A stretch of 64,000 nucleotides of DNA. Origin: Spirochaetia bacterium. Its GTDB lineage: Bacteria > Spirochaetota > Spirochaetia > CADAEX01. This document shows positions 3,079 to 63,379 of this stretch, piece after piece. The notes beneath the pieces were generated by a model, which saw nothing but the letters and a program-made list of their open reading frames with translations, was not told the DNA's origin and made no database searches. The DNA is taken from contig JAZURI010000007.1 of NCBI GenBank assembly GCA_045606105.1, forward strand, positions 37,554 through 101,553, given 5' to 3'. A program made the position numbers and the translations under genes. The stretch's first letter is position 1; each line of letters begins with the position of its first letter.

Positions 3079-4212
3079 TTAGAAATCGATTTTTGTTACG
3101 AAGTAAAGTCCGCCTTCAGCTGCTGTAACTGTGTCTGTGTTAAGAGTCTTGAAGAAATGTCCCTTTTCAGCATCTTCGTTGAAGTAGATGTAACCGAGCT
3201 TGTAGCATACACCCTTTTCAGGTTTTGCAACGATACCAACTTCGAATGTCTGGAATGCTTCGTCTCCACATGTGTTCTCTTTGTAGTCACCGAATGCGAA
3301 CTGTGCACCAGCGTTAACTCCGAGCCAATCGAGGAAGAAGTATTCAGCATCGATACCCATTGCTGAGAATGGTGAGTACTTGTCTTCTCCCCAGTAATCT
3401 TCACCGAAAGCACCTGCAGCAGAAACGCCGATCTTAGCTCCGAAAGCTTCGAATGCTACACCAGCTCCCCACCACTGTCCTCTGTCTTCACCGTTGTCTT
3501 TAGAGATAACGTGTCCACCGATTGTGAAGAGGTAGTCTGCGATTGCGAGTTCGTACATTGCTTCAACACCGAACATGTTTGCATCTTCGGCAGCTTCCTT
3601 GAAGAAGTAACCTTCTACCCAGAGAGGAAGTTCCATTGCAGCAAAGTCAAGTCCAACACCGAGGAGGTACTGTGCATCGTTGTCGTATGCTGTACCAGCG
3701 TCTGTTGTGTCAAAGTTGAGTGCAGCGTATGGCTGTACAAGACCGTCAGCGAATGAAAGGTTCAGTTTTGCACCGAAGTCCTTATCTGTTGCTGGGTTAT
3801 CGATGTCGTCGGAATATTCATATGCGAATCCTGTGAAAGATACGTTGTCGAATGTTTCCCATGAGTTGAGACCGATGTCTGTTGAGATTCCGATTCCTTC
3901 AAGACCGAAGAATTTTCCCCAGTCAGAGATTACTCTGAAGTAATTGAAAGAAGGTGTTCCTTCTCCCTTAGTTCCTGTTGATTTGTTCCATGAACCGTCT
4001 TCTTCAATTTCGATAGCCATCTTTGTGTAGTCACCGATAGCTCCCTTGATGTCTACTTCACCCTTGTCCCATTTGTCAGCAAATTCTGCTGAATCACTGT
4101 CATCGAAACCATTAACCATGTAATAGTCGAATTCGCCGCTGATTGTGAGTTCTGAGAAAACAGGCATAGCAGCAAAAACCAAAACCATAGCCAAAACTAA
4201 AAGTTTTTTCAT
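3079..4212 (-). CDS. putative outer-membrane beta-barrel porin-like protein
   Basis: Signal peptide MKKLLVLAMVLVFAAMPVFS. The sequence is acidic and Gly/aromatic-rich with alternating strand pattern, and the C-terminus ...YFVTKIDF ends in Phe. It has a consensus promoter, a strong terminator, and codon usage like the ribosomal protein genes. Confidence 0.6.
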   Translation of the reverse strand: MKKLLVLAMVLVFAAMPVFSELTISGEFDYYMVNGFDDSDSAEFADKWDKGEVDIKGAIGDYTKMAIEIEEDGSWNKSTGTKGEGTPSFNYFRVISDWGKFFGLEGIGISTDIGLNSWETFDNVSFTGFAYEYSDDIDNPATDKDFGAKLNLSFADGLVQPYAALNFDTTDAGTAYDNDAQYLLGVGLDFAAMELPLWVEGYFFKEAAEDANMFGVEAMYELAIADYLFTIGGHVISKDNGEDRGQWWGAGVAFEAFGAKIGVSAAGAFGEDYWGEDKYSPFSAMGIDAEYFFLDWLGVNAGAQFAFGDYKENTCGDEAFQTFEVGIVAKPEKGVCYKLGYIYFNEDAEKGHFFKTLNTDTVTAAEGGLYFVTKIDF

Positions 4213-4288
4213 TTTTTGTTCTCCTTTGTTTTTTTAGGGCCCCGATCAACAACCGAGGTACTCCCCTAAAATAATATAATTCTATTAT

Positions 4289-4317
4289 ATTATAGCAATC
4301 TTAAAATCTGCTGTCAA
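4289..4317 (-). promoter_or_regulatory. consensus sigma-70 promoter for the porin-like gene
   Basis: The minus strand reads TTGACA (4317-4312), a 17-nt spacer, then TATAAT (4294-4289), about 75 nt upstream of the ATG at 4212. Confidence 0.65.
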
Positions 4318-4347
4318 CAAAAATTTTTTAAATTTTAACATACAGGT

Positions 4348-5541
4348 TTATCTCAGACCGTAGTTGTCAATTACGAAATCCAGGTCCTTGTCTCCCCGGC
4401 CCGAAAGATTTACCAGAATTGACTTTCTCGGATTTTCCTTTGCATACTTCATTCCGTAGGCCACTGCATGGGCGCTTTCCAGTGCAGGGATGATTCCCTC
4501 TGCCTTAGGCAATGTATAGAAGGCATCCAGACATTCCTCGTCATTTACGGTTGTGTATCTTACTCTTCCCAGGTCCTTCAGCAGGCAGTGCTCAGGTCCG
4601 CTTCCCGGATAGTCGAGACCGCTGGCAATGGAATATACCGGAAGTGGTTCTCCGTTCTTGTCCTGGAGCATGTAGGATCTGAAGCCGTGGAGGATTCCCG
4701 GTGTTCCGTAGGAAAGGCTGGCTGCGTGGTCTCCGATCTGAAGTGAACGACCTGCCGGCTCAACACCGATAAGCTCTGTTTCTTCGTCATCCAGGAAGCC
4801 TGTGAACATACCGATGGCATTGGATCCGCCGCCCACACATGCTGTTACCGCATCAGGAAGCTCTCCTGTCATTTCAAAGAACTGCTCTCTTGACTCTATT
4901 CCGATAACTCTCTGGAAATCCCTTACAAGCAGAGGGAACGGATGCGGTCCCAGAACGCTTCCGATACAATAGAGGGTATTTACCGGATCTTTCAGGTATG
5001 CCTCAAAAGCTGCATCAACTGCCTCCTTCAGGGTCTTGAGTCCGTGGGTTACAGGTATTACGTTTGCTCCCAGGAGCTTCATTCTCATTACGTTAGGGTG
5101 CTGCTTTGCAATATCCACCTCTCCCATGTAGATGTCACATTCCAGGCCGAAATATGCTGCTGCGGTAGCTAGTGCCACTCCGTGCTGTCCGGCCCCTGTC
5201 TCTGCTATGATCTTTTTCTTCCCCATGTATTTGGCCAGGAGTCCCTCTCCCATGCAGTGATTCAGCTTATGGGCACCTGTATGGTTCAGGTCCTCTCTCT
5301 TGAGGTAGATTCTTCCGCCGCACATTTCCGAAAGCTTCTTGCAGAAATAGACCGGTGTAGGTCTTCCCTGGAAGTGCTTTCTTATGCTTCTGAGCTCTGA
5401 AATGAACTCGTGGGATTTGCTGATTGAGTAATATGCATCATTTATCTTATTCATTTCGTTCTGAAGTTCGTCTGAAATGAAGGAACCGCCGTATTCTCCG
5501 AAAAAGCCTTTTGCATCCGGATATGTCTTGAAGTATTTCAT
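4348..5541 (-). CDS. trpB: tryptophan synthase beta chain (stand-alone, no trpA nearby)
   Basis: Motifs: [16 protein letters not shown] (PLP lysine region), [11 protein letters not shown] and GGGSNAIG. The start was moved to ATG 5541 (MKYFK...), which has SD AAGGAG 8 nt upstream. Confidence 0.9.
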
Positions 5542-32414: not shown

Positions 32415-32723
32415 ATGGCTGAAGAAAGGATTAGAGTAAGGCTCAGGGGATTCGATATCGAACTCATTGATCAGAGTGCAAAATCAATTGTACAGACAGT
32501 TGTAAAAGCCGGTGCAAAAGTTGCCGGACCGATTCCGCTGCCTACAAAAATCAGTAAATATACTGTTCTTAAATCTCCGTTTGTAAACAAGAAGTCTAGA
32601 GAACAGTTTGAAATGAGAACTCACAAAAGATTGATTGATATTTATGAACCTACAGCACCGGTAATGGATGCACTCATGAAGCTTGAGCTCCCTGCAGGTG
32701 TAGATGTAGAAATTAAACAGTGA
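32415..32723 (+). CDS. rpsJ: 30S ribosomal protein S10
   Basis: Conserved S10 sequence. First gene of the S10 operon. Confidence 0.97.
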
Positions 32724-58667: not shown

Positions 58668-59582
58668 ATGAAGAAATTTAAGATAAACCTATCCAGGAAG
58701 ATTATTGCAGTTTCGGCATTTGTTGTATTAGCGGCCGTTTTATGCATACTTGTTTTCAGGTTCACAAGCGGCTCCATATCCTTTGCCGATGACAATGAAA
58801 ACACATCTTTTTCCGCACTGTGGGAAAGCCGGCAGTACACAAGGCTTATTGAAGCCGGTAATAATGAACTGAAAAAAAATCCCATGAACAAGCATGCCCT
58901 TGTCTTTACCGGTTTTGCAAACTTTTATCACGGTATTTCCATTCTCATTCCCGAAGAGCGTACCGAATATATGGAAGAGGCGGTAAAGCTTCTCAGAAAG
59001 GCTCTTCTTACCGACGGTGAGGTCAATTCCTCCGTAAAGTATATCCTGGGAAAAGCCTATTATCATAAGGGGCGTCATTACAGCAACCTTTCAGTAAAAT
59101 ATCTTACCGAAGCATTGGATGAAAACTATCCAGCAAGGGATATCCATGAATATCTGGGACTGGCTTATTCCGCCATGGGAAACAGGGCCGGTACCATAGA
59201 AAACTTTGAAAAGGCGGCGGAGCTGAATCCCGGTTCACCGCTTCTGCTTCTCTCTCTGGCAAATGCCTACATTGAAAACAATGAAAACGAGAAGGCAGCC
59301 CTGGTTCTCGGTAACATGGGAGGTACCGGGGATAACGAGGTTATAAACGAAAAGAGATACCTGCTGGAGGGGCGTGTCCGCATCTCCATAGGAAATCTGA
59401 AGGAGGCTGAAGCTTCCCTGAAGAAGGCTCTGGAAATAAATCCTGACATGGTTGATGCCTATTTCTATCTCGGTCTGGTCTATGAGGCTGAAGGGGATAA
59501 ATGGAAGGCCAGGAAACAATGGGAAAAGGGTTACAGAACCGATCCCGACTATGCTCCCATCAAGGACAAGCTGTTCAGATAG
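58668..59582 (+). CDS. membrane-anchored tetratricopeptide (TPR) repeat protein
   Basis: N-terminal TM helix and several TPR-like repeats (e.g. AEASLKKALEINPDMVDAYFYLGLVYEAEGD). Confidence 0.7.
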   Translation: MKKFKINLSRKIIAVSAFVVLAAVLCILVFRFTSGSISFADDNENTSFSALWESRQYTRLIEAGNNELKKNPMNKHALVFTGFANFYHGISILIPEERTEYMEEAVKLLRKALLTDGEVNSSVKYILGKAYYHKGRHYSNLSVKYLTEALDENYPARDIHEYLGLAYSAMGNRAGTIENFEKAAELNPGSPLLLLSLANAYIENNENEKAALVLGNMGGTGDNEVINEKRYLLEGRVRISIGNLKEAEASLKKALEINPDMVDAYFYLGLVYEAEGDKWKARKQWEKGYRTDPDYAPIKDKLFR

Positions 59583-59591
59583 CGGCGGTTT

Positions 59592-60290
59592 TCAGTCTGT
59601 ATTCCTGAGCTTCAGTGGGATGCCTGCATCCCTGACAATTTCTGCCATGGCTTCCAGCCTTGACAGCGGATAAGGGTGTTCTGCAAAGCCTTTGTCCAAT
59701 GTATTTCCAGGAACATATCCTGCCAGTACATAAAGTTCGGTTCCTTTTACAAGAGTACAGATCTTTCTTATGTCATCCTCATCCACGATACCCGGAACCA
59801 CGGTGGTCCTGAACTCATGGCTTATTCCCGAAGCCTTTATGATATCCACGGAGCTGATTATCTTCTCCTGCAGTATTTTTCCTGCACCCTCTTCTCCCGG
59901 CAGCAGCAGACCGTACTTTTCAGGAGAGGTCTTAATATCCATGGCAATATAGTCAGGCTTTATTTCAAGTATTTTTTCGGGAAATGTACCGTTTGTATCC
60001 AGCTTGATCAGATATCCCATTTTCCGTATTTCGGAAACCAGGTCTCCCAGATCGTTGTGAACCAGGGGCTCTCCTCCGGATATACAGACTCCTTCGATGA
60101 CATTCTTTCTTTTTTCAAGGTATGAAAGTACGGAATCAATATTCTCCAGATCATCGGCCCGGTTCAGGACCAGCTCCGGATTATGGCAGTAAGGACAGCG
60201 CAGATTACAACCGGGGAGAAAAATCACGGATGCGACTCTCCCCGGATAATTGATAAGTGTGGTTTTTATAAAACCGGCTCTGGTAATCAC
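59592..60290 (-). CDS. nrdG: anaerobic ribonucleoside-triphosphate reductase activating protein (radical SAM)
   Basis: CNLRCPYCHN radical-SAM cluster motif. The GTG start is 1 nt after the upstream TAA. Last gene of the nrd operon. Confidence 0.88.
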   Translation of the reverse strand: MITRAGFIKTTLINYPGRVASVIFLPGCNLRCPYCHNPELVLNRADDLENIDSVLSYLEKRKNVIEGVCISGGEPLVHNDLGDLVSEIRKMGYLIKLDTNGTFPEKILEIKPDYIAMDIKTSPEKYGLLLPGEEGAGKILQEKIISSVDIIKASGISHEFRTTVVPGIVDEDDIRKICTLVKGTELYVLAGYVPGNTLDKGFAEHPYPLSRLEAMAEIVRDAGIPLKLRNTD

Positions 60291-60291
60291 T

Positions 60292-60771
60292 TTACACTAC
60301 AGCAGCTTCGGCGATACCGAGCTTTTCCTTGATGTCCCTGATGTTATAGGCTCTTGAAAGCTCCTTGCCGTCAGCATTGTAGAAGATGACTGTAGGAACA
60401 GCAAAGATGTTGCTGCCTCTTGCCTTGTCGAGACCTTCCTTGTCGTCTACGGAACAGAAGATTCCGTCCAGGCCTGTTGATGCAATGAAATCCTTTACTG
60501 CAGGACAGTTTGGACAGGTTTTCTTTGTAAAGCATACAAATGAAGCAGGGGCGTTTTCATCGGCCGGAGCTGCGGCTTCCTTGTTTTCAGGATCAAAGCA
60601 TACTCTCTGCTTGAATTCTGATTTTTTACCCTTGTTCCAGTTCTTTACAGATCTGTAGTAGCCTACGATTCTTGTATAAACCTCGGTTTCCTTTCCTTTT
60701 ACATTGCGGAGTTCCTCTCTGCATTCAGCCAGTTCCTTGTTGATTACATCTATATTTCTTTCCTGTGTCAT
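60292..60771 (-). CDS. NrdD glycyl-radical tail fused to a thioredoxin-like CxxC domain
   Basis: Residues 28-60, ETEVYTRIVGYYRSVKNWNKGKKSEFKQRVCFD, match the C-terminal glycyl-radical segment of class III RNRs. A linker PENKEAAAPADENAPA follows. The thioredoxin-like fold has CPNC and the cis-Pro motif AVPT. SD AAGGAG lies 6 nt upstream of the ATG. Confidence 0.75.
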   Translation of the reverse strand: MTQERNIDVINKELAECREELRNVKGKETEVYTRIVGYYRSVKNWNKGKKSEFKQRVCFDPENKEAAAPADENAPASFVCFTKKTCPNCPAVKDFIASTGLDGIFCSVDDKEGLDKARGSNIFAVPTVIFYNADGKELSRAYNIRDIKEKLGIAEAAVV

Positions 60772-60783
60772 AATATTCTCCTT

Positions 60784-62901
60784 TCAAATAAGTGTTACTT
60801 CCGAAAGCTCTGCTTTCTCTTTTTCCAGTGCTGCAATCTTTTCACGCAGCAGCTCTTCCTGCTCCCTTCTGCACTTCTCGCAGGTGAAATGCTCTCCCTT
60901 CAGGTAGCCGTGGATAGGACATACCGAGAAGGTAGGTGAGATTGTGAAGTACGGAAGCCTGTAGTTATAGGCAATGGACTTGACCAGATTCCTGCAGGCC
61001 TGCCAGTCGTCGATGGCCTCACCGATGAAGCCGTGGAATACTGTTCCGCCTGTGTAGAGGGTCTGGAGATCATCCTGGTGATCCAGTGCCTCAAAAATAT
61101 CGGTTGTATAGTTTACCGGAAGCTGTGTGGAGTTTGTGTAGTAAGGATCTGCCTCTCCCGAAGCTATGATTTCAGGATATGCTTCCTTGTCATGCTTTGC
61201 CAGTCTGTAGCTTGTGCTTTCGGCTGGTGTTGCTTCAAGGTTGAAGAGATCTCCTGTTTCCTCCTGGAATTCAGAAAGCTTGTTTCTCATGAAATTGAGG
61301 ATTTCCACCGCAAAGTCCTTTCCTTCCTGTGTGGAGATATCCTTGCCCAGGAAATTGAGGAGACATTCGTTCATACCGCAGATACCGATGGTAGAAAAGT
61401 GGTTGTTGAGGTGCTGCAGGTATCTTTTTGTGTATGGGAAAAGTCCTGTGGTCATGAGACGGTTGATAACCTTTCTCTTGATTACCAGAGATCTGGCTGC
61501 CAGCTTCATGAGGTTTTCCAGTTTCTTGAAAAATTCTTCCTTTGAACCGGAAAGATATCCGATCTTAGGGAGATTGATGGTTACTACACCGATGGAACCG
61601 GTAAATTCGTCTGAGCCGAAAAGTCCTCCGCCCCTTTTTCTGAGCTCTCTCTTGTCCAGCTGGAGTCTGCAGCACATGGAGCGTACATCTCCCGGATTGA
61701 GATTGCTGTTGATGAAGTTCTGGAAGTATGGAGTTCCGTACTTTGCTGTCATTTCGAAAAGAAGTCTTGCATTAGGGGAGTCCCAGTCAAAGCTTCTGGT
61801 GATGTTGTATGTAGGGATAGGATACTGGAAGCCTCTTCCGTTTGCATCTCCGTCCAGCATGAGCTCGATGAAGCACTTGTTGATGATATCCATTTCCCTC
61901 TGACAGTCGCCGTAGGTGAAGTCCATTTCCTTTCCGCCTACAACTGCAGGCTTGTCCTTGAGGTCGTCAGGTACAACCCAGTCCAGGGTAATGTTTGTGA
62001 ACGGTGCCTGTGAACCCCATCTGGATGGAGTGTTTACACCGAAAACAAAGCTCTGGAGCCCCTGCTTTACCTCTTTTTCTCCCAGGTTATCCACCTTTAC
62101 GAAAGGAGCGATATATGTGTCAAAGCTTGAAAGAGCCTGTGCACCTGCCCATTCGTTCTGCATGATTCCCAGGAAGTTGACAATCTGCTGGATCAGTGTA
62201 AGGAGGTGTTTTGCCGGCTTTGATGTGATTTTGTCCGGAACTCCTCCCAGACCCTCTGCAATGAGCTGTCTCAGTGACCAGCCGGCACAGTAGCCGGAGA
62301 ACATTGAAAGGTCGTGGATATGGAAATCTGCGTTCTTGTGGGCATTGGCGATTTCCTCCGGATAGATATTCTTAAGCCAGTAGTTTGCGGTAATGGTTCC
62401 GGAATTGTGGAGAATGAGACCACCCAGTGAGAAGTTCACGTTTGCATTCTCATTTACTCTCCAGTCCGACTGGGACAGATAGCCGTCCATGGTGTTGTTG
62501 ATGTCCAGGATAAGCTTCTTGCTGTCTCTCATGGCCTCGTGCTGGGCTCTGTAAAGGATATATGCCTTTGCAATCTTTGGAACCGATTCCATCATCACCA
62601 CTTCGATGATATCCTGGATTTCCTCGATAGCCGGGGCTGAATTCGGGTGTCTTCCCTGCATGAACTCCCTGAGCTTATCCTCTGTCTTTTCTGTAAGCTT
62701 TTCTGTCAGGTCCTTGTCTTCCATTCCCTGAACCGCACTTACTGCCCTGCTTATGGCACTTGCAATCTTCCATCTGTCATATTTTTCAATGGAGCCGTCT
62801 CTCTTGACAATACGCTTTACAACAAATGAGCTTGCTGTGTTGTCTTCTTCTGATTCAAGATGGAGAAACTCCTTCCAGTCGTTTGTATTTCCCAAAGCCA
62901 T
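60784..62901 (-). CDS. nrdD: anaerobic ribonucleoside-triphosphate reductase catalytic chain, lacking its own glycyl-radical segment
   Basis: ATP-cone-like N-terminus (VVKRDGSIEKYD..KI) and a large NrdD core (RSMCCRLQLD finger-loop region). The C-terminus has CPIHGY...CEKC followed by a coiled-coil tail and TGA. The start is taken at ATG 62901, after GGGAGGAGG. The ORF track starts at TTG 62913. Confidence 0.88.
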   Translation of the reverse strand: MALGNTNDWKEFLHLESEEDNTASSFVVKRIVKRDGSIEKYDRWKIASAISRAVSAVQGMEDKDLTEKLTEKTEDKLREFMQGRHPNSAPAIEEIQDIIEVVMMESVPKIAKAYILYRAQHEAMRDSKKLILDINNTMDGYLSQSDWRVNENANVNFSLGGLILHNSGTITANYWLKNIYPEEIANAHKNADFHIHDLSMFSGYCAGWSLRQLIAEGLGGVPDKITSKPAKHLLTLIQQIVNFLGIMQNEWAGAQALSSFDTYIAPFVKVDNLGEKEVKQGLQSFVFGVNTPSRWGSQAPFTNITLDWVVPDDLKDKPAVVGGKEMDFTYGDCQREMDIINKCFIELMLDGDANGRGFQYPIPTYNITRSFDWDSPNARLLFEMTAKYGTPYFQNFINSNLNPGDVRSMCCRLQLDKRELRKRGGGLFGSDEFTGSIGVVTINLPKIGYLSGSKEEFFKKLENLMKLAARSLVIKRKVINRLMTTGLFPYTKRYLQHLNNHFSTIGICGMNECLLNFLGKDISTQEGKDFAVEILNFMRNKLSEFQEETGDLFNLEATPAESTSYRLAKHDKEAYPEIIASGEADPYYTNSTQLPVNYTTDIFEALDHQDDLQTLYTGGTVFHGFIGEAIDDWQACRNLVKSIAYNYRLPYFTISPTFSVCPIHGYLKGEHFTCEKCRREQEELLREKIAALEKEKAELSEVTLI

Positions 62902-62914
62902 ACCTCCTCCCAAA

Positions 62915-63379
62915 TTACCAGGCTTTTTCGCTTAGCTTTTCAATTTCGCTGACAAATTCGTCAACGTTGTCAAAATGTCTGTAAACTGACGCAAATCTGA
63001 TATAAGCCACCTTATCCAGCTTGAAAATGCTCCGGAGCACCAGTTCTCCCAGCTCTTCGGTGGATATGTCGTTGGTCAGCTGACATCTGAGATAAACCTC
63101 ACTCTCGATCTCTCTCAGGATCTCTCTCAGCCTCTCCTCCGGCACGGCCCGCTTCTCCAGGGATTTGCGTATTCCTCTCTCTATTTTTCCCATATCAAAG
63201 AGCTCCCTGCTTTTATCACGCTTTATTACAGTAAGAGGCGTTTCCTTGATATGCTCGTAGGAGGTGAAGCGATAATGACATGCAAGACATTCCCGTCTTC
63301 TTCTTATGGAAGATCCGTCTACATTCTGCTTGCTTTCAATAACCTTATCGTCAATGCTGCCGCAGGCCGGACATTTCAT
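62915..63379 (-). CDS. nrdR: transcriptional repressor NrdR
   Basis: Zn ribbon MKCPACGS...RRRECLACHYRFT and an ATP-cone domain. SD GGAGG is upstream. Confidence 0.93.
   Translation of the reverse strand: MKCPACGSIDDKVIESKQNVDGSSIRRRRECLACHYRFTSYEHIKETPLTVIKRDKSRELFDMGKIERGIRKSLEKRAVPEERLREILREIESEVYLRCQLTNDISTEELGELVLRSIFKLDKVAYIRFASVYRHFDNVDEFVSEIEKLSEKAW

Follow-up and report, generated by a model that had tools for sequence, protein, structure and literature searches.

In a 64,000-nt stretch of DNA from a Spirochaetia bacterium (CADAEX01; assembly GCA_045606105.1, contig JAZURI010000007.1, positions 37,554-101,553 of the forward strand), hereafter the window, in whose own numbering all coordinates are given, the class III ribonucleotide reductase gene nrdD was found in two pieces. 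Judging from the sequences compared here, the glycyl-radical segment of the enzyme is encoded on a separate, independently initiated polypeptide, and this split is conserved across the clade. By every sequence criterion but one the system is a class III reductase, the one departure being that the radical glycine and the finger-loop cysteine lie on separate polypeptides. Our results make it likely that this is a conserved, naturally split two-chain class III ribonucleotide reductase, the chains of which are probably held together by helices.

The gene cluster runs on the minus strand in the order nrdR, a large nrdD open reading frame (ORF), a 12-nt spacer, an ORF of 159 amino acids (aa) and nrdG. 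At the junction, the minus strand reads GTA ACA CTT ATT TGA AAG GAG AAT ATT ATG in a single frame. The large ORF ends in ...FSVCPIHGYLKGEHFTCEKCRREQEELLREKIAALEKEKAELSEVTLI-TGA, and the small ORF bears ETEVYTRIVGYYRSVKNWNKGKKSEFKQR, with the codon of Gly37 at 60661-60663. Two profile models were broken at this junction: PF13597 (model length 562) matched the large ORF with positions 1-532 and residues 27-59 of the small ORF with positions 531-562, and NF006126 (model length 684) behaved likewise (positions 2-657 on the large ORF, 648-682 on the small ORF). A previous reading of this DNA from its letters alone (the sequence-only reading) had described a large ORF that keeps its C-terminal metal site and has no glycyl-radical motif, a following ORF that holds the NrdD radical tail with Gly37, a junction with a Shine-Dalgarno sequence and an in-frame ATG, and nrdG 1 nt past the small ORF. 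All of this was borne out, and the profile alignment that it had proposed as a check did break at the stop in both models. The features of the two chains and of the adjoining cluster genes are as follows.

62915-63379, minus strand: nrdR, first gene of the cluster, for the repressor of ribonucleotide reductase genes (TIGR00244, 1.5e-49; Pfam Zn_ribbon_NrdR and ATP-cone).
60784-62901, minus strand: nrdD large chain, 705 aa plus TGA, with ATP-cone, catalytic barrel and metal ribbon and without a glycyl-radical loop.
62536-62814, minus strand: ATP-cone of the large chain (PF03477, 5.3e-17; residues 34-126 in the 709-aa numbering).
61663-61677, minus strand: finger-loop motif MCCRL, residues 409-413, with the double cysteine at 410-411.
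60871-60921, minus strand: metal-binding ribbon C-x2-H-x9-C-x2-C (CPIHGYLKGEHFTCEKC), a pattern shared with unsplit relatives; metal binding is predicted.
60787-60870, minus strand: C-terminal amphipathic helix tail of the large chain, 28 residues (RREQEELLREKIAALEKEKAELSEVTLI), the proposed docking helix.
60784-60786, minus strand: TGA stop of the large chain.
60778-60783, minus strand: AAGGAG Shine-Dalgarno sequence of the small chain, 6 nt before the ATG.
60292-60771, minus strand: small chain, 159 aa plus TAA, with N-terminal helix, glycyl-radical loop, linker and thioredoxin-like domain.
60706-60753, minus strand: N-terminal amphipathic helix of the small chain, residues 7-22, a helix in the AlphaFold2 model and the proposed partner of the large-chain tail.
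60595-60696, minus strand: glycyl-radical segment, residues 26-59 (PF13597 positions 531-562 on residues 27-59).
60319-60543, minus strand: thioredoxin-fold domain, residues 77-151, with CPNC at residues 86-89 (60505-60516).
59592-60290, minus strand: nrdG, radical-SAM activase (TIGR02495, NrdG2, 3.5e-55), beginning 1 nt past the small-chain stop.

The large chain scored 1087 bits against NF006126 (cut-off 548), matched PF13597 at 2.3e-178, and matched the NrdD chains of Thermotoga maritima at 2e-38. Its start is likely the ATG at 62901, which stands behind the Shine-Dalgarno sequence GGGAGGAGG and gives 705 aa, rather than the TTG at 62913 (709 aa), the start in the automatic ORF list that lies right behind the nrdR stop. 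The MCCRL finger loop was identical in 142 of 142 related loci, and these chains have a conserved [FY]NLEATPAE motif, which may correspond to the active-site glutamate that NrdD2 enzymes need for formate-independent reduction. The possibility, raised beforehand, that this chain still contains a glycyl-radical loop of its own found no support. Neither R-[IVL]-x-G-[YF] nor R-x-x-G-[YF] occurs anywhere in the large chain of the window (motif scan), and none of the 120 closest large-chain homologues (74-97% identity, 677-729 aa) has the glycine motif downstream of the metal ribbon; the one regex match among them (P0206) falls upstream of it.

The glycyl-radical segment is instead found on the small chain, where G26, E30, Y32, R34-I35-V36-G37-Y38-Y39-R40, W45, N46, G48 and K49 were invariant over 109 homologues. 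The Pfam matches of this chain were to the NRDD tail and to Glutaredoxin/Thioredoxin_2, and none was to the Gly_radical domain of the pyruvate formate-lyase (PFL) type. We retrieved 1119 homologues of the small chain at 90% clustering, the best 120 of which are 127-243 aa long. A profile search of 1.84 billion representatives returned at least 158 clusters at 50% identity (E < 1e-30), and the best 150 of these 158 were all short (125-345 aa). In databases, the homologues go by the names 'hypothetical protein' or 'anaerobic ribonucleoside-triphosphate reductase'.

The split was also present in the relatives of the window strain. A small protein 98% identical to ours (P0001) occurs on seven contigs that were assembled independently from seven sequencing runs, and the large-ORF stop is at the same place in all seven of these closest assemblies as well as in the next closest relative, the metagenome-assembled genome (MAG) L001. 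A locus scan for relatives of the small protein, with one genome per species, returned at least 572 loci, of which the best 80 were analysed. An in-frame stop stood 34-129 codons upstream of RIVGYY in 80 of these 80, and in the 71 with enough upstream sequence a large ORF without the motif (~700-740 aa if complete) ends shortly before the small gene. The best 80 loci were nearly all from Spirochaetia or Treponema, including the cultured T. lecithinolyticum ATCC 700332, T. berlinense ATCC BAA-909 and T. bryantii NK4A124. The small gene was followed by an ORF with a CX3CX2C motif (nrdG) in 75 of 77 related loci. The view that the stop is not a random nonsense lesion is thus upheld by the seven assemblies and by the wider set of loci, and the stop is not private to one strain with uninterrupted relatives.

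We note some exceptions to this general distribution. In L057 (near position 3967) the small gene has no upstream nrdD and is preceded, at a distance of 101 nt, by the end of a 1287-aa ORF; linkage of the two genes is not universal. Two split loci with both helices (see below) carry non-spirochaete names, namely L107 (labelled Candidatus Marinamargulisbacteria) and L060 (labelled Paratractidigestivibacter). In our core tree, L060 lies inside the Treponema clade, which suggests mis-binning, and L107 falls outside the spirochaetes, as might be expected from transfer or from an older origin.

The details of the junction varied from locus to locus. Over the 71 loci, the stop of the large ORF was TAA in 53, TGA in 10 and TAG in 8; the small gene started in relative frame 0, 1 or 2 in 25, 22 and 24 loci, respectively; and the spacer ranged from a 28-nt overlap (-28) to +346 nt. 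In the seven closest assemblies the junction is TGA TAG GAGAAATATT ATG, with a second stop directly behind the first, a 13-nt spacer and the ATG in frame +1, a 1-nt indel apart from that of the window. L001 likewise has a 13-nt spacer and a +1 ATG. The spacers of many Treponema loci (L012-L078, e.g., L074, L032, L065 and L072) are 100-190 nt long and contain NrdR-box-like palindromes (ACACTAWATWTAGTGT), often in pairs ~42 bp apart that flank a promoter-like TTGACA. These palindromes were found 35 times in 5,963 nt of spacer compared with 0 times in 139,560 nt of large-gene coding DNA. In the window itself, we found one weak NrdR-box match only, at 32551 and far from the operon, and none in the 12-nt junction. 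In one locus (L055), the 346-nt spacer holds a directly repeated unit of ~45 nt (cccccttcgagggcgagaagttcgggtcagcatat.gggtagcc, present twice), which may represent the insertion of a small repeat element at this place.

From the variable stops, frames and spacers and from the NrdR-box-like spacers we conclude that the large and small genes are independent cistrons and that readthrough is not a conserved mechanism. The palindromes suggest that, in many Treponema, the small gene and nrdG are under their own NrdR-regulated promoter, and the large and small genes are probably separate transcription units in many species. This differs from two proposals of the sequence-only reading. It had taken the in-frame stop, Shine-Dalgarno sequence and ATG to be a deliberate design, but the frames of the 71 loci are distributed no differently from chance, and on this comparison the in-frame relation of TGA and ATG in the window is a coincidence, because the relatives mostly have TAA, use all three frames and have variable spacers. 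It had also proposed that occasional readthrough of the TGA makes a fused form, which is not in keeping with the stop usage of the relatives or with the TGA-TAG and +1 frame of the nearest strains. Of the stop, Shine-Dalgarno and ATG arrangement that it had suggested looking for in related genomes, the split itself and a GGAGG-like sequence ahead of the small-gene ATG recurred (the latter in most related loci), whereas the type of stop, the frame and the spacer length did not. TGA is an ordinary stop in the window, where it terminates 13 of 33 open frames that have 250 codons or more. On this stop usage and on the stops and frames of the relatives, we rejected selenocysteine or an altered genetic code at the TGA, with no search made for a SECIS element.

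The break is accompanied by two additional helices, one on either chain. The large-chain tail was found in 66 paired loci and in the 120 closest large-chain homologues; 119 of these 120 end in a short helical tail of ~22-36 residues, and the exception (P0220) has a longer, divergent one. Over 83 paired loci, the tail shows a heptad pattern with Leu/Ile in 100% at positions 8, 12 and 15, hydrophobic residues at 22-23, and Lys/Arg in 99% at position 19. In the N-terminal helix of the small chain, six positions at heptad spacing are occupied by Leu/Ile/Val, and an invariant Gly comes next (83 loci). Both helices were present in every split pair examined (83 paired loci). In contrast, in 68 of 68 unsplit relatives the ribbon leads directly into the loop, typically as C-P-x-C-G-x-x-x-E-V-Y, and both helices are absent.

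These unsplit relatives were identified by a locus scan with P0355, a contig-truncated protein that reads ...CPNHGYLAGEHFTCPHC-GADA-EVYSRIVGYYR... without a break and continues into a linker, a CPNC domain and then nrdG. The scan returned 80 loci, of which 52 encode an unsplit NrdD with a C-terminal CPNC domain and 16 an unsplit NrdD without it; a few more were split spirochaete forms. The unsplit CPNC fusions come from spirochaetes (Sediminispirochaeta and other Spirochaetaceae; L089-L097, L101, L103) and from Firmicutes (Roseburia, Pseudobutyrivibrio, other Lachnospiraceae, Oscillospiraceae and others; L108-L167). A search with the unsplit junction peptide found the contiguous junction in many phyla, the matches being fragments of up to 167 aa. 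By this comparison, the thioredoxin fusion is not specific to the split form and is probably older than the split, because unsplit NrdD of Sediminispirochaeta and Firmicutes already carry the CPNC domain. The features peculiar to the split form are its two helices and the interruption between ribbon and loop.

Other arrangements of the same elements were seen in passing. In Candidatus Pacebacteria (P0464; L169-L171, position 4001-4459), a free-standing ORF of 152 aa covers no more than the end of NrdD, with its YYTNS motif, metal ribbon and glycine loop. At least 10 contigs carry this ORF, flanked by prfA and ftsE/ftsX and with no large nrdD found within 4 kb; it may encode a radical protein of the NrdD type that acts on its own, or be a relic. 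P0357 (L172, position 501-1463, a single short contig) and P0272 join the glycine loop, a thioredoxin-like domain and the NrdG activase in one ORF; these may be real substrate-activase fusions or frameshift artefacts. Next to the cluster in the window, a 304-aa TPR-repeat protein is encoded on the plus strand (58668-59582), convergent with nrdG and 10 nt from its end, and the same neighbour occurs in the closest strain (L082, L085).

The C-terminal part of the small chain was examined for its fold. The AlphaFold2 model shows a beta-alpha-beta-alpha-beta-beta-alpha fold with a block pLDDT of ~79-90, and the top Foldseek matches of the domain in the PDB were thioredoxins (probability 1.00). A profile search of the domain led to small archaeal and bacterial glutaredoxin/thioredoxin chains (7c10, 1fo5). 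Pfam Glutaredoxin/Thioredoxin_2 matches cover residues 72-140, with a Glutaredoxin score of 22.4, slightly below the cut-off of 22.9. C86, C89, P90, P126 and T127, that is the CPNC motif and a cis-Pro-type PT motif, were invariant in 109 homologues. Judged by the conservation of these motifs, of the glycine-loop residues, of the finger loop and of the adjoining nrdG, both parts of the enzyme appear to be functional. The linker between the glycyl-radical loop and this domain is long, variable and of low confidence in the model. Double-cysteine finger loops such as that of the large chain go with thioredoxin-type reduction (NrdD2 criteria; PMC9669993). The sequence-only reading, sound as it was on the two ORFs, was incomplete in that it lacked the thioredoxin-like domain, the paired helices at the break and the unsplit NrdD-thioredoxin fusions of sister lineages.

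We propose the following working of the two chains. NrdG would abstract a hydrogen from Gly37 of the small chain, so that the radical sits there. By analogy with the attached domain of ordinary NrdD, the Gly37 loop would then enter the large-chain barrel to produce the thiyl radical. The 28-residue tail of the large chain would pair with residues 7-22 of the small chain, probably replacing the lost covalent link. After each turnover, the CPNC domain most likely re-reduces the active-site disulfide, given the double-cysteine (NrdD2-type) finger loop and the precedent of Grx::NrdB. Domain fusion and motif conservation are the basis on which we infer this reductant role. In this way, radical and electrons alike would come from the small chain.

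In glycyl radical enzymes, oxygen cuts the chain at the glycine. It is plausible that after such damage only the 18-kDa chain would be lost, as in a built-in version of the GrcA logic. This leads to a more tentative reading, which we regard as possible and rather doubtful: that the small chain is a diffusible, exchangeable cartridge, activated by NrdG off the enzyme, docking through its helix, delivering radical and electrons, and replaced as an 18-kDa piece after cleavage at Gly37. If true, the enzyme would be a class III reductase with a class-I-like alpha/beta logic, made up of a catalytic and a radical-storage subunit. Such an arrangement may aid spirochaetes at oxic-anoxic interfaces, and the putative NrdR-controlled promoter of the small gene and nrdG in many Treponema would allow the cartridge to be made in excess.

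Several of our results weigh against a split, helix-held enzyme and call for caution. In the AlphaFold2 model of the isolated small chain, residues 27-54, including RIVGYY, are drawn as one helix. This departs from the beta-finger that bears the glycine in solved structures of glycyl radical enzymes, and we take the helix to be a likely consequence of folding the chain without its partner. The charges of the two helices are weakly complementary (mean net charge +0.5 for the tail and -2.8 for the N-terminal helix; -2 and -1 in the window). A second, intact nrdD elsewhere in the genomes is possible, as our comparison was of loci rather than whole genomes. In the core tree, a rough neighbour-joining tree, the spirochaete sequences group together with the Firmicutes fusion clade as sister and L107 outside, and the unsplit Sediminispirochaeta sit on short branches within the split groups. 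This tree is compatible with a single fission and later re-fusion as well as with multiple fissions.

Other explanations of the locus were weighed against these data. That a single stop codon breaks what profile models treat as one protein could reflect a sequencing or assembly error or a recent nonsense mutation, leaving an nrdD pseudogene. We give this next to no credence, considering that the same stop recurs in seven independent assemblies and in MAG L001, that the architecture is kept in at least 71 species-level genomes, that the large chains are 74-97% identical across families with MCCRL intact, and that the split forms have invariant small-chain catalytic residues and have gained dedicated helices. 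In programmed recoding, one fused NrdD would arise by readthrough of the in-frame TGA or by its decoding as selenocysteine or tryptophan, and the Shine-Dalgarno sequence and ATG would play an incidental or secondary part. In the window, stop and ATG do share a frame across the 12-nt spacer, and rare readthrough would yield an 869-aa fusion. Nonetheless, recoding appears most improbable in view of the TGA-TAG stops, 13-nt spacers and +1 ATG of the seven closest assemblies (13 nt and +1 also in L001), the predominance of TAA, the even spread of frames (25/22/24) and the spacers of -28 to +346 nt over 71 loci, the NrdR-box-like palindromes that often flank TTGACA in many spacers, and the use of TGA as terminator of 13 of the 33 long open frames in the window. 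Rare readthrough in the window strain alone is possible, and nothing suggests that it is relevant.

It could further be argued that the small protein is a rescue module like GrcA/YfiD for an intact NrdD encoded elsewhere, with the adjacent large ORF a truncated paralogue that has another role or none. GrcA sets the precedent of an autonomous glycyl-radical protein that repairs an oxygen-cleaved enzyme (PMC8683613), the Pacebacteria have a stand-alone C-terminal NrdD piece with no large gene nearby, and the small gene of L057 lacks an upstream nrdD. However, the large chains of this clade never have a loop of their own and yet are strongly conserved; in nearly all loci nrdG and the genes of the two chains lie side by side; each chain has one of the matching helices, which are confined to split forms; and the small chain matches the NrdD tail (PF13597) and not the PFL-type Gly_radical domain. 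We therefore consider a mere spare part very unlikely. A last alternative accepts the two-subunit enzyme and has the thioredoxin-like domain sense the redox state, protect the radical or activase, or serve in docking, with electrons coming from free thioredoxin or formate. This would be in line with the long, variable, low-confidence linker ahead of the domain, with the fact that no thioredoxin reductase gene adjoins the cluster in the window, and with the methionine kept in MCCRL, which is tied to formate chemistry in single-cysteine enzymes (PMC9669993). The invariance of CPNC and cis-Pro over 109 sequences, the fusion of the same domain to double-cysteine NrdD in Firmicutes and spirochaetes, and the efficiency of a glutaredoxin fused to NrdB as reductant of its reductase (PMC6187632) make us regard this alternative as unlikely and favor a reductant role within the split, two-chain enzyme.

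If the split enzyme is confirmed, an obligately two-chain class III reductase, fixed in a large bacterial clade, would show that a radical domain acting in trans can be an ordinary subunit. It would provide a natural system in which activation by NrdG can be separated from catalysis, and would allow tests of the exit and re-entry of the radical domain at the barrel and of how a reductant reaches the buried disulfide in double-cysteine NrdDs. It would also be an evolutionary parallel to the alpha/beta organisation of class I. For annotation, the consequence is that the small protein is filed as 'hypothetical' or as a partial reductase, and its large partner would still be counted as an ordinary NrdD despite the missing radical site.

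To our knowledge, the radical glycine and the catalytic cysteine of glycyl radical enzymes share one chain, and the exception, as far as we found, is GrcA, an emergency replacement. No split NrdD with a separate glycine-loop subunit was described in the full-text literature that we searched (subscription-only titles were outside its scope), and split class III enzymes go unmentioned in a review of glycyl radical enzymes from June 2026. The interpretation of the locus as a two-piece NrdD, put forward for the window alone by the sequence-only reading, is supported in its core and extended here to a whole clade. The closest known enzymes are the single-chain NrdD/NrdG systems of the double-cysteine type (Thermotoga maritima, PDB 4COI and 4U3E; NF006126), which share with ours the ATP-cone, barrel, MCCRL, ribbon, RIVGYY and an adjacent NrdG2-type activase. 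Compared with these, the loop is here on a second polypeptide, two helices are added at the break, and a thioredoxin-fold domain follows the loop. The unsplit NrdD-CPNC fusions have the core family, the glycine motif and a homologous CPNC domain in common with the split form (with nrdG downstream at least in L081), but are one chain, in which the ribbon runs directly into the loop and the helices are lacking. GrcA/YfiD and phage T4 Y06I, which serve as spare parts for PFL, are, like our small chain, small free-standing proteins with a radical glycine, and activation by the activase of the enzyme and insertion into a large partner are likewise proposed here. GrcA differs in its descent from the PFL C-terminus and in having a partner with a loop of its own, whereas the small chain is of NrdD origin (PF13597), has an added thioredoxin domain and has a loopless partner. 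Because the large partner has no loop, the small chain would be obligatory.

Split reductases are known from other classes. In Aeromonas phage Aeh1, the class I catalytic subunit is encoded as NrdA-a and NrdA-b, and both activity and assembly require novel C- and N-terminal tails at the break (PMC3045599). The two genes and the non-covalent reassembly have a counterpart in the split enzyme proposed here, and the tails recall its helices. However, the Aeh1 break lies within the catalytic core of a class I enzyme and was caused by a mobile endonuclease, whereas here the radical-storage element is separated, the split is fixed across a large clade and no mobile element is evident. The class II catalytic subunit of Pseudomonas aeruginosa is likewise encoded by two genes, NrdJa and NrdJb (cited in PMC9669993), broken within the catalytic core, and phage reductase genes are split by introns, inteins or endonucleases (PMC3653736). 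None of these known split reductases (phage, Aeh1, NrdJa/b) separates the glycyl-radical module. With regard to the redoxin, a single grx::nrdD fusion has been mentioned in a survey that demanded at least 90% profile coverage (PMC6187632), and a survey of this type would miss the small chain because near-full-length coverage is required. The same study showed that in Facklamia ignava Grx::NrdB the glutaredoxin fused to the radical subunit is the reductant of the enzyme (PMC6187632). That system is class I, with a tyrosyl/metal radical and an N-terminal glutaredoxin, and ours is a class III system with a predicted glycyl radical and a thioredoxin-like domain at the C-terminus, but in both a redoxin is joined to the subunit that would hold the stable radical.

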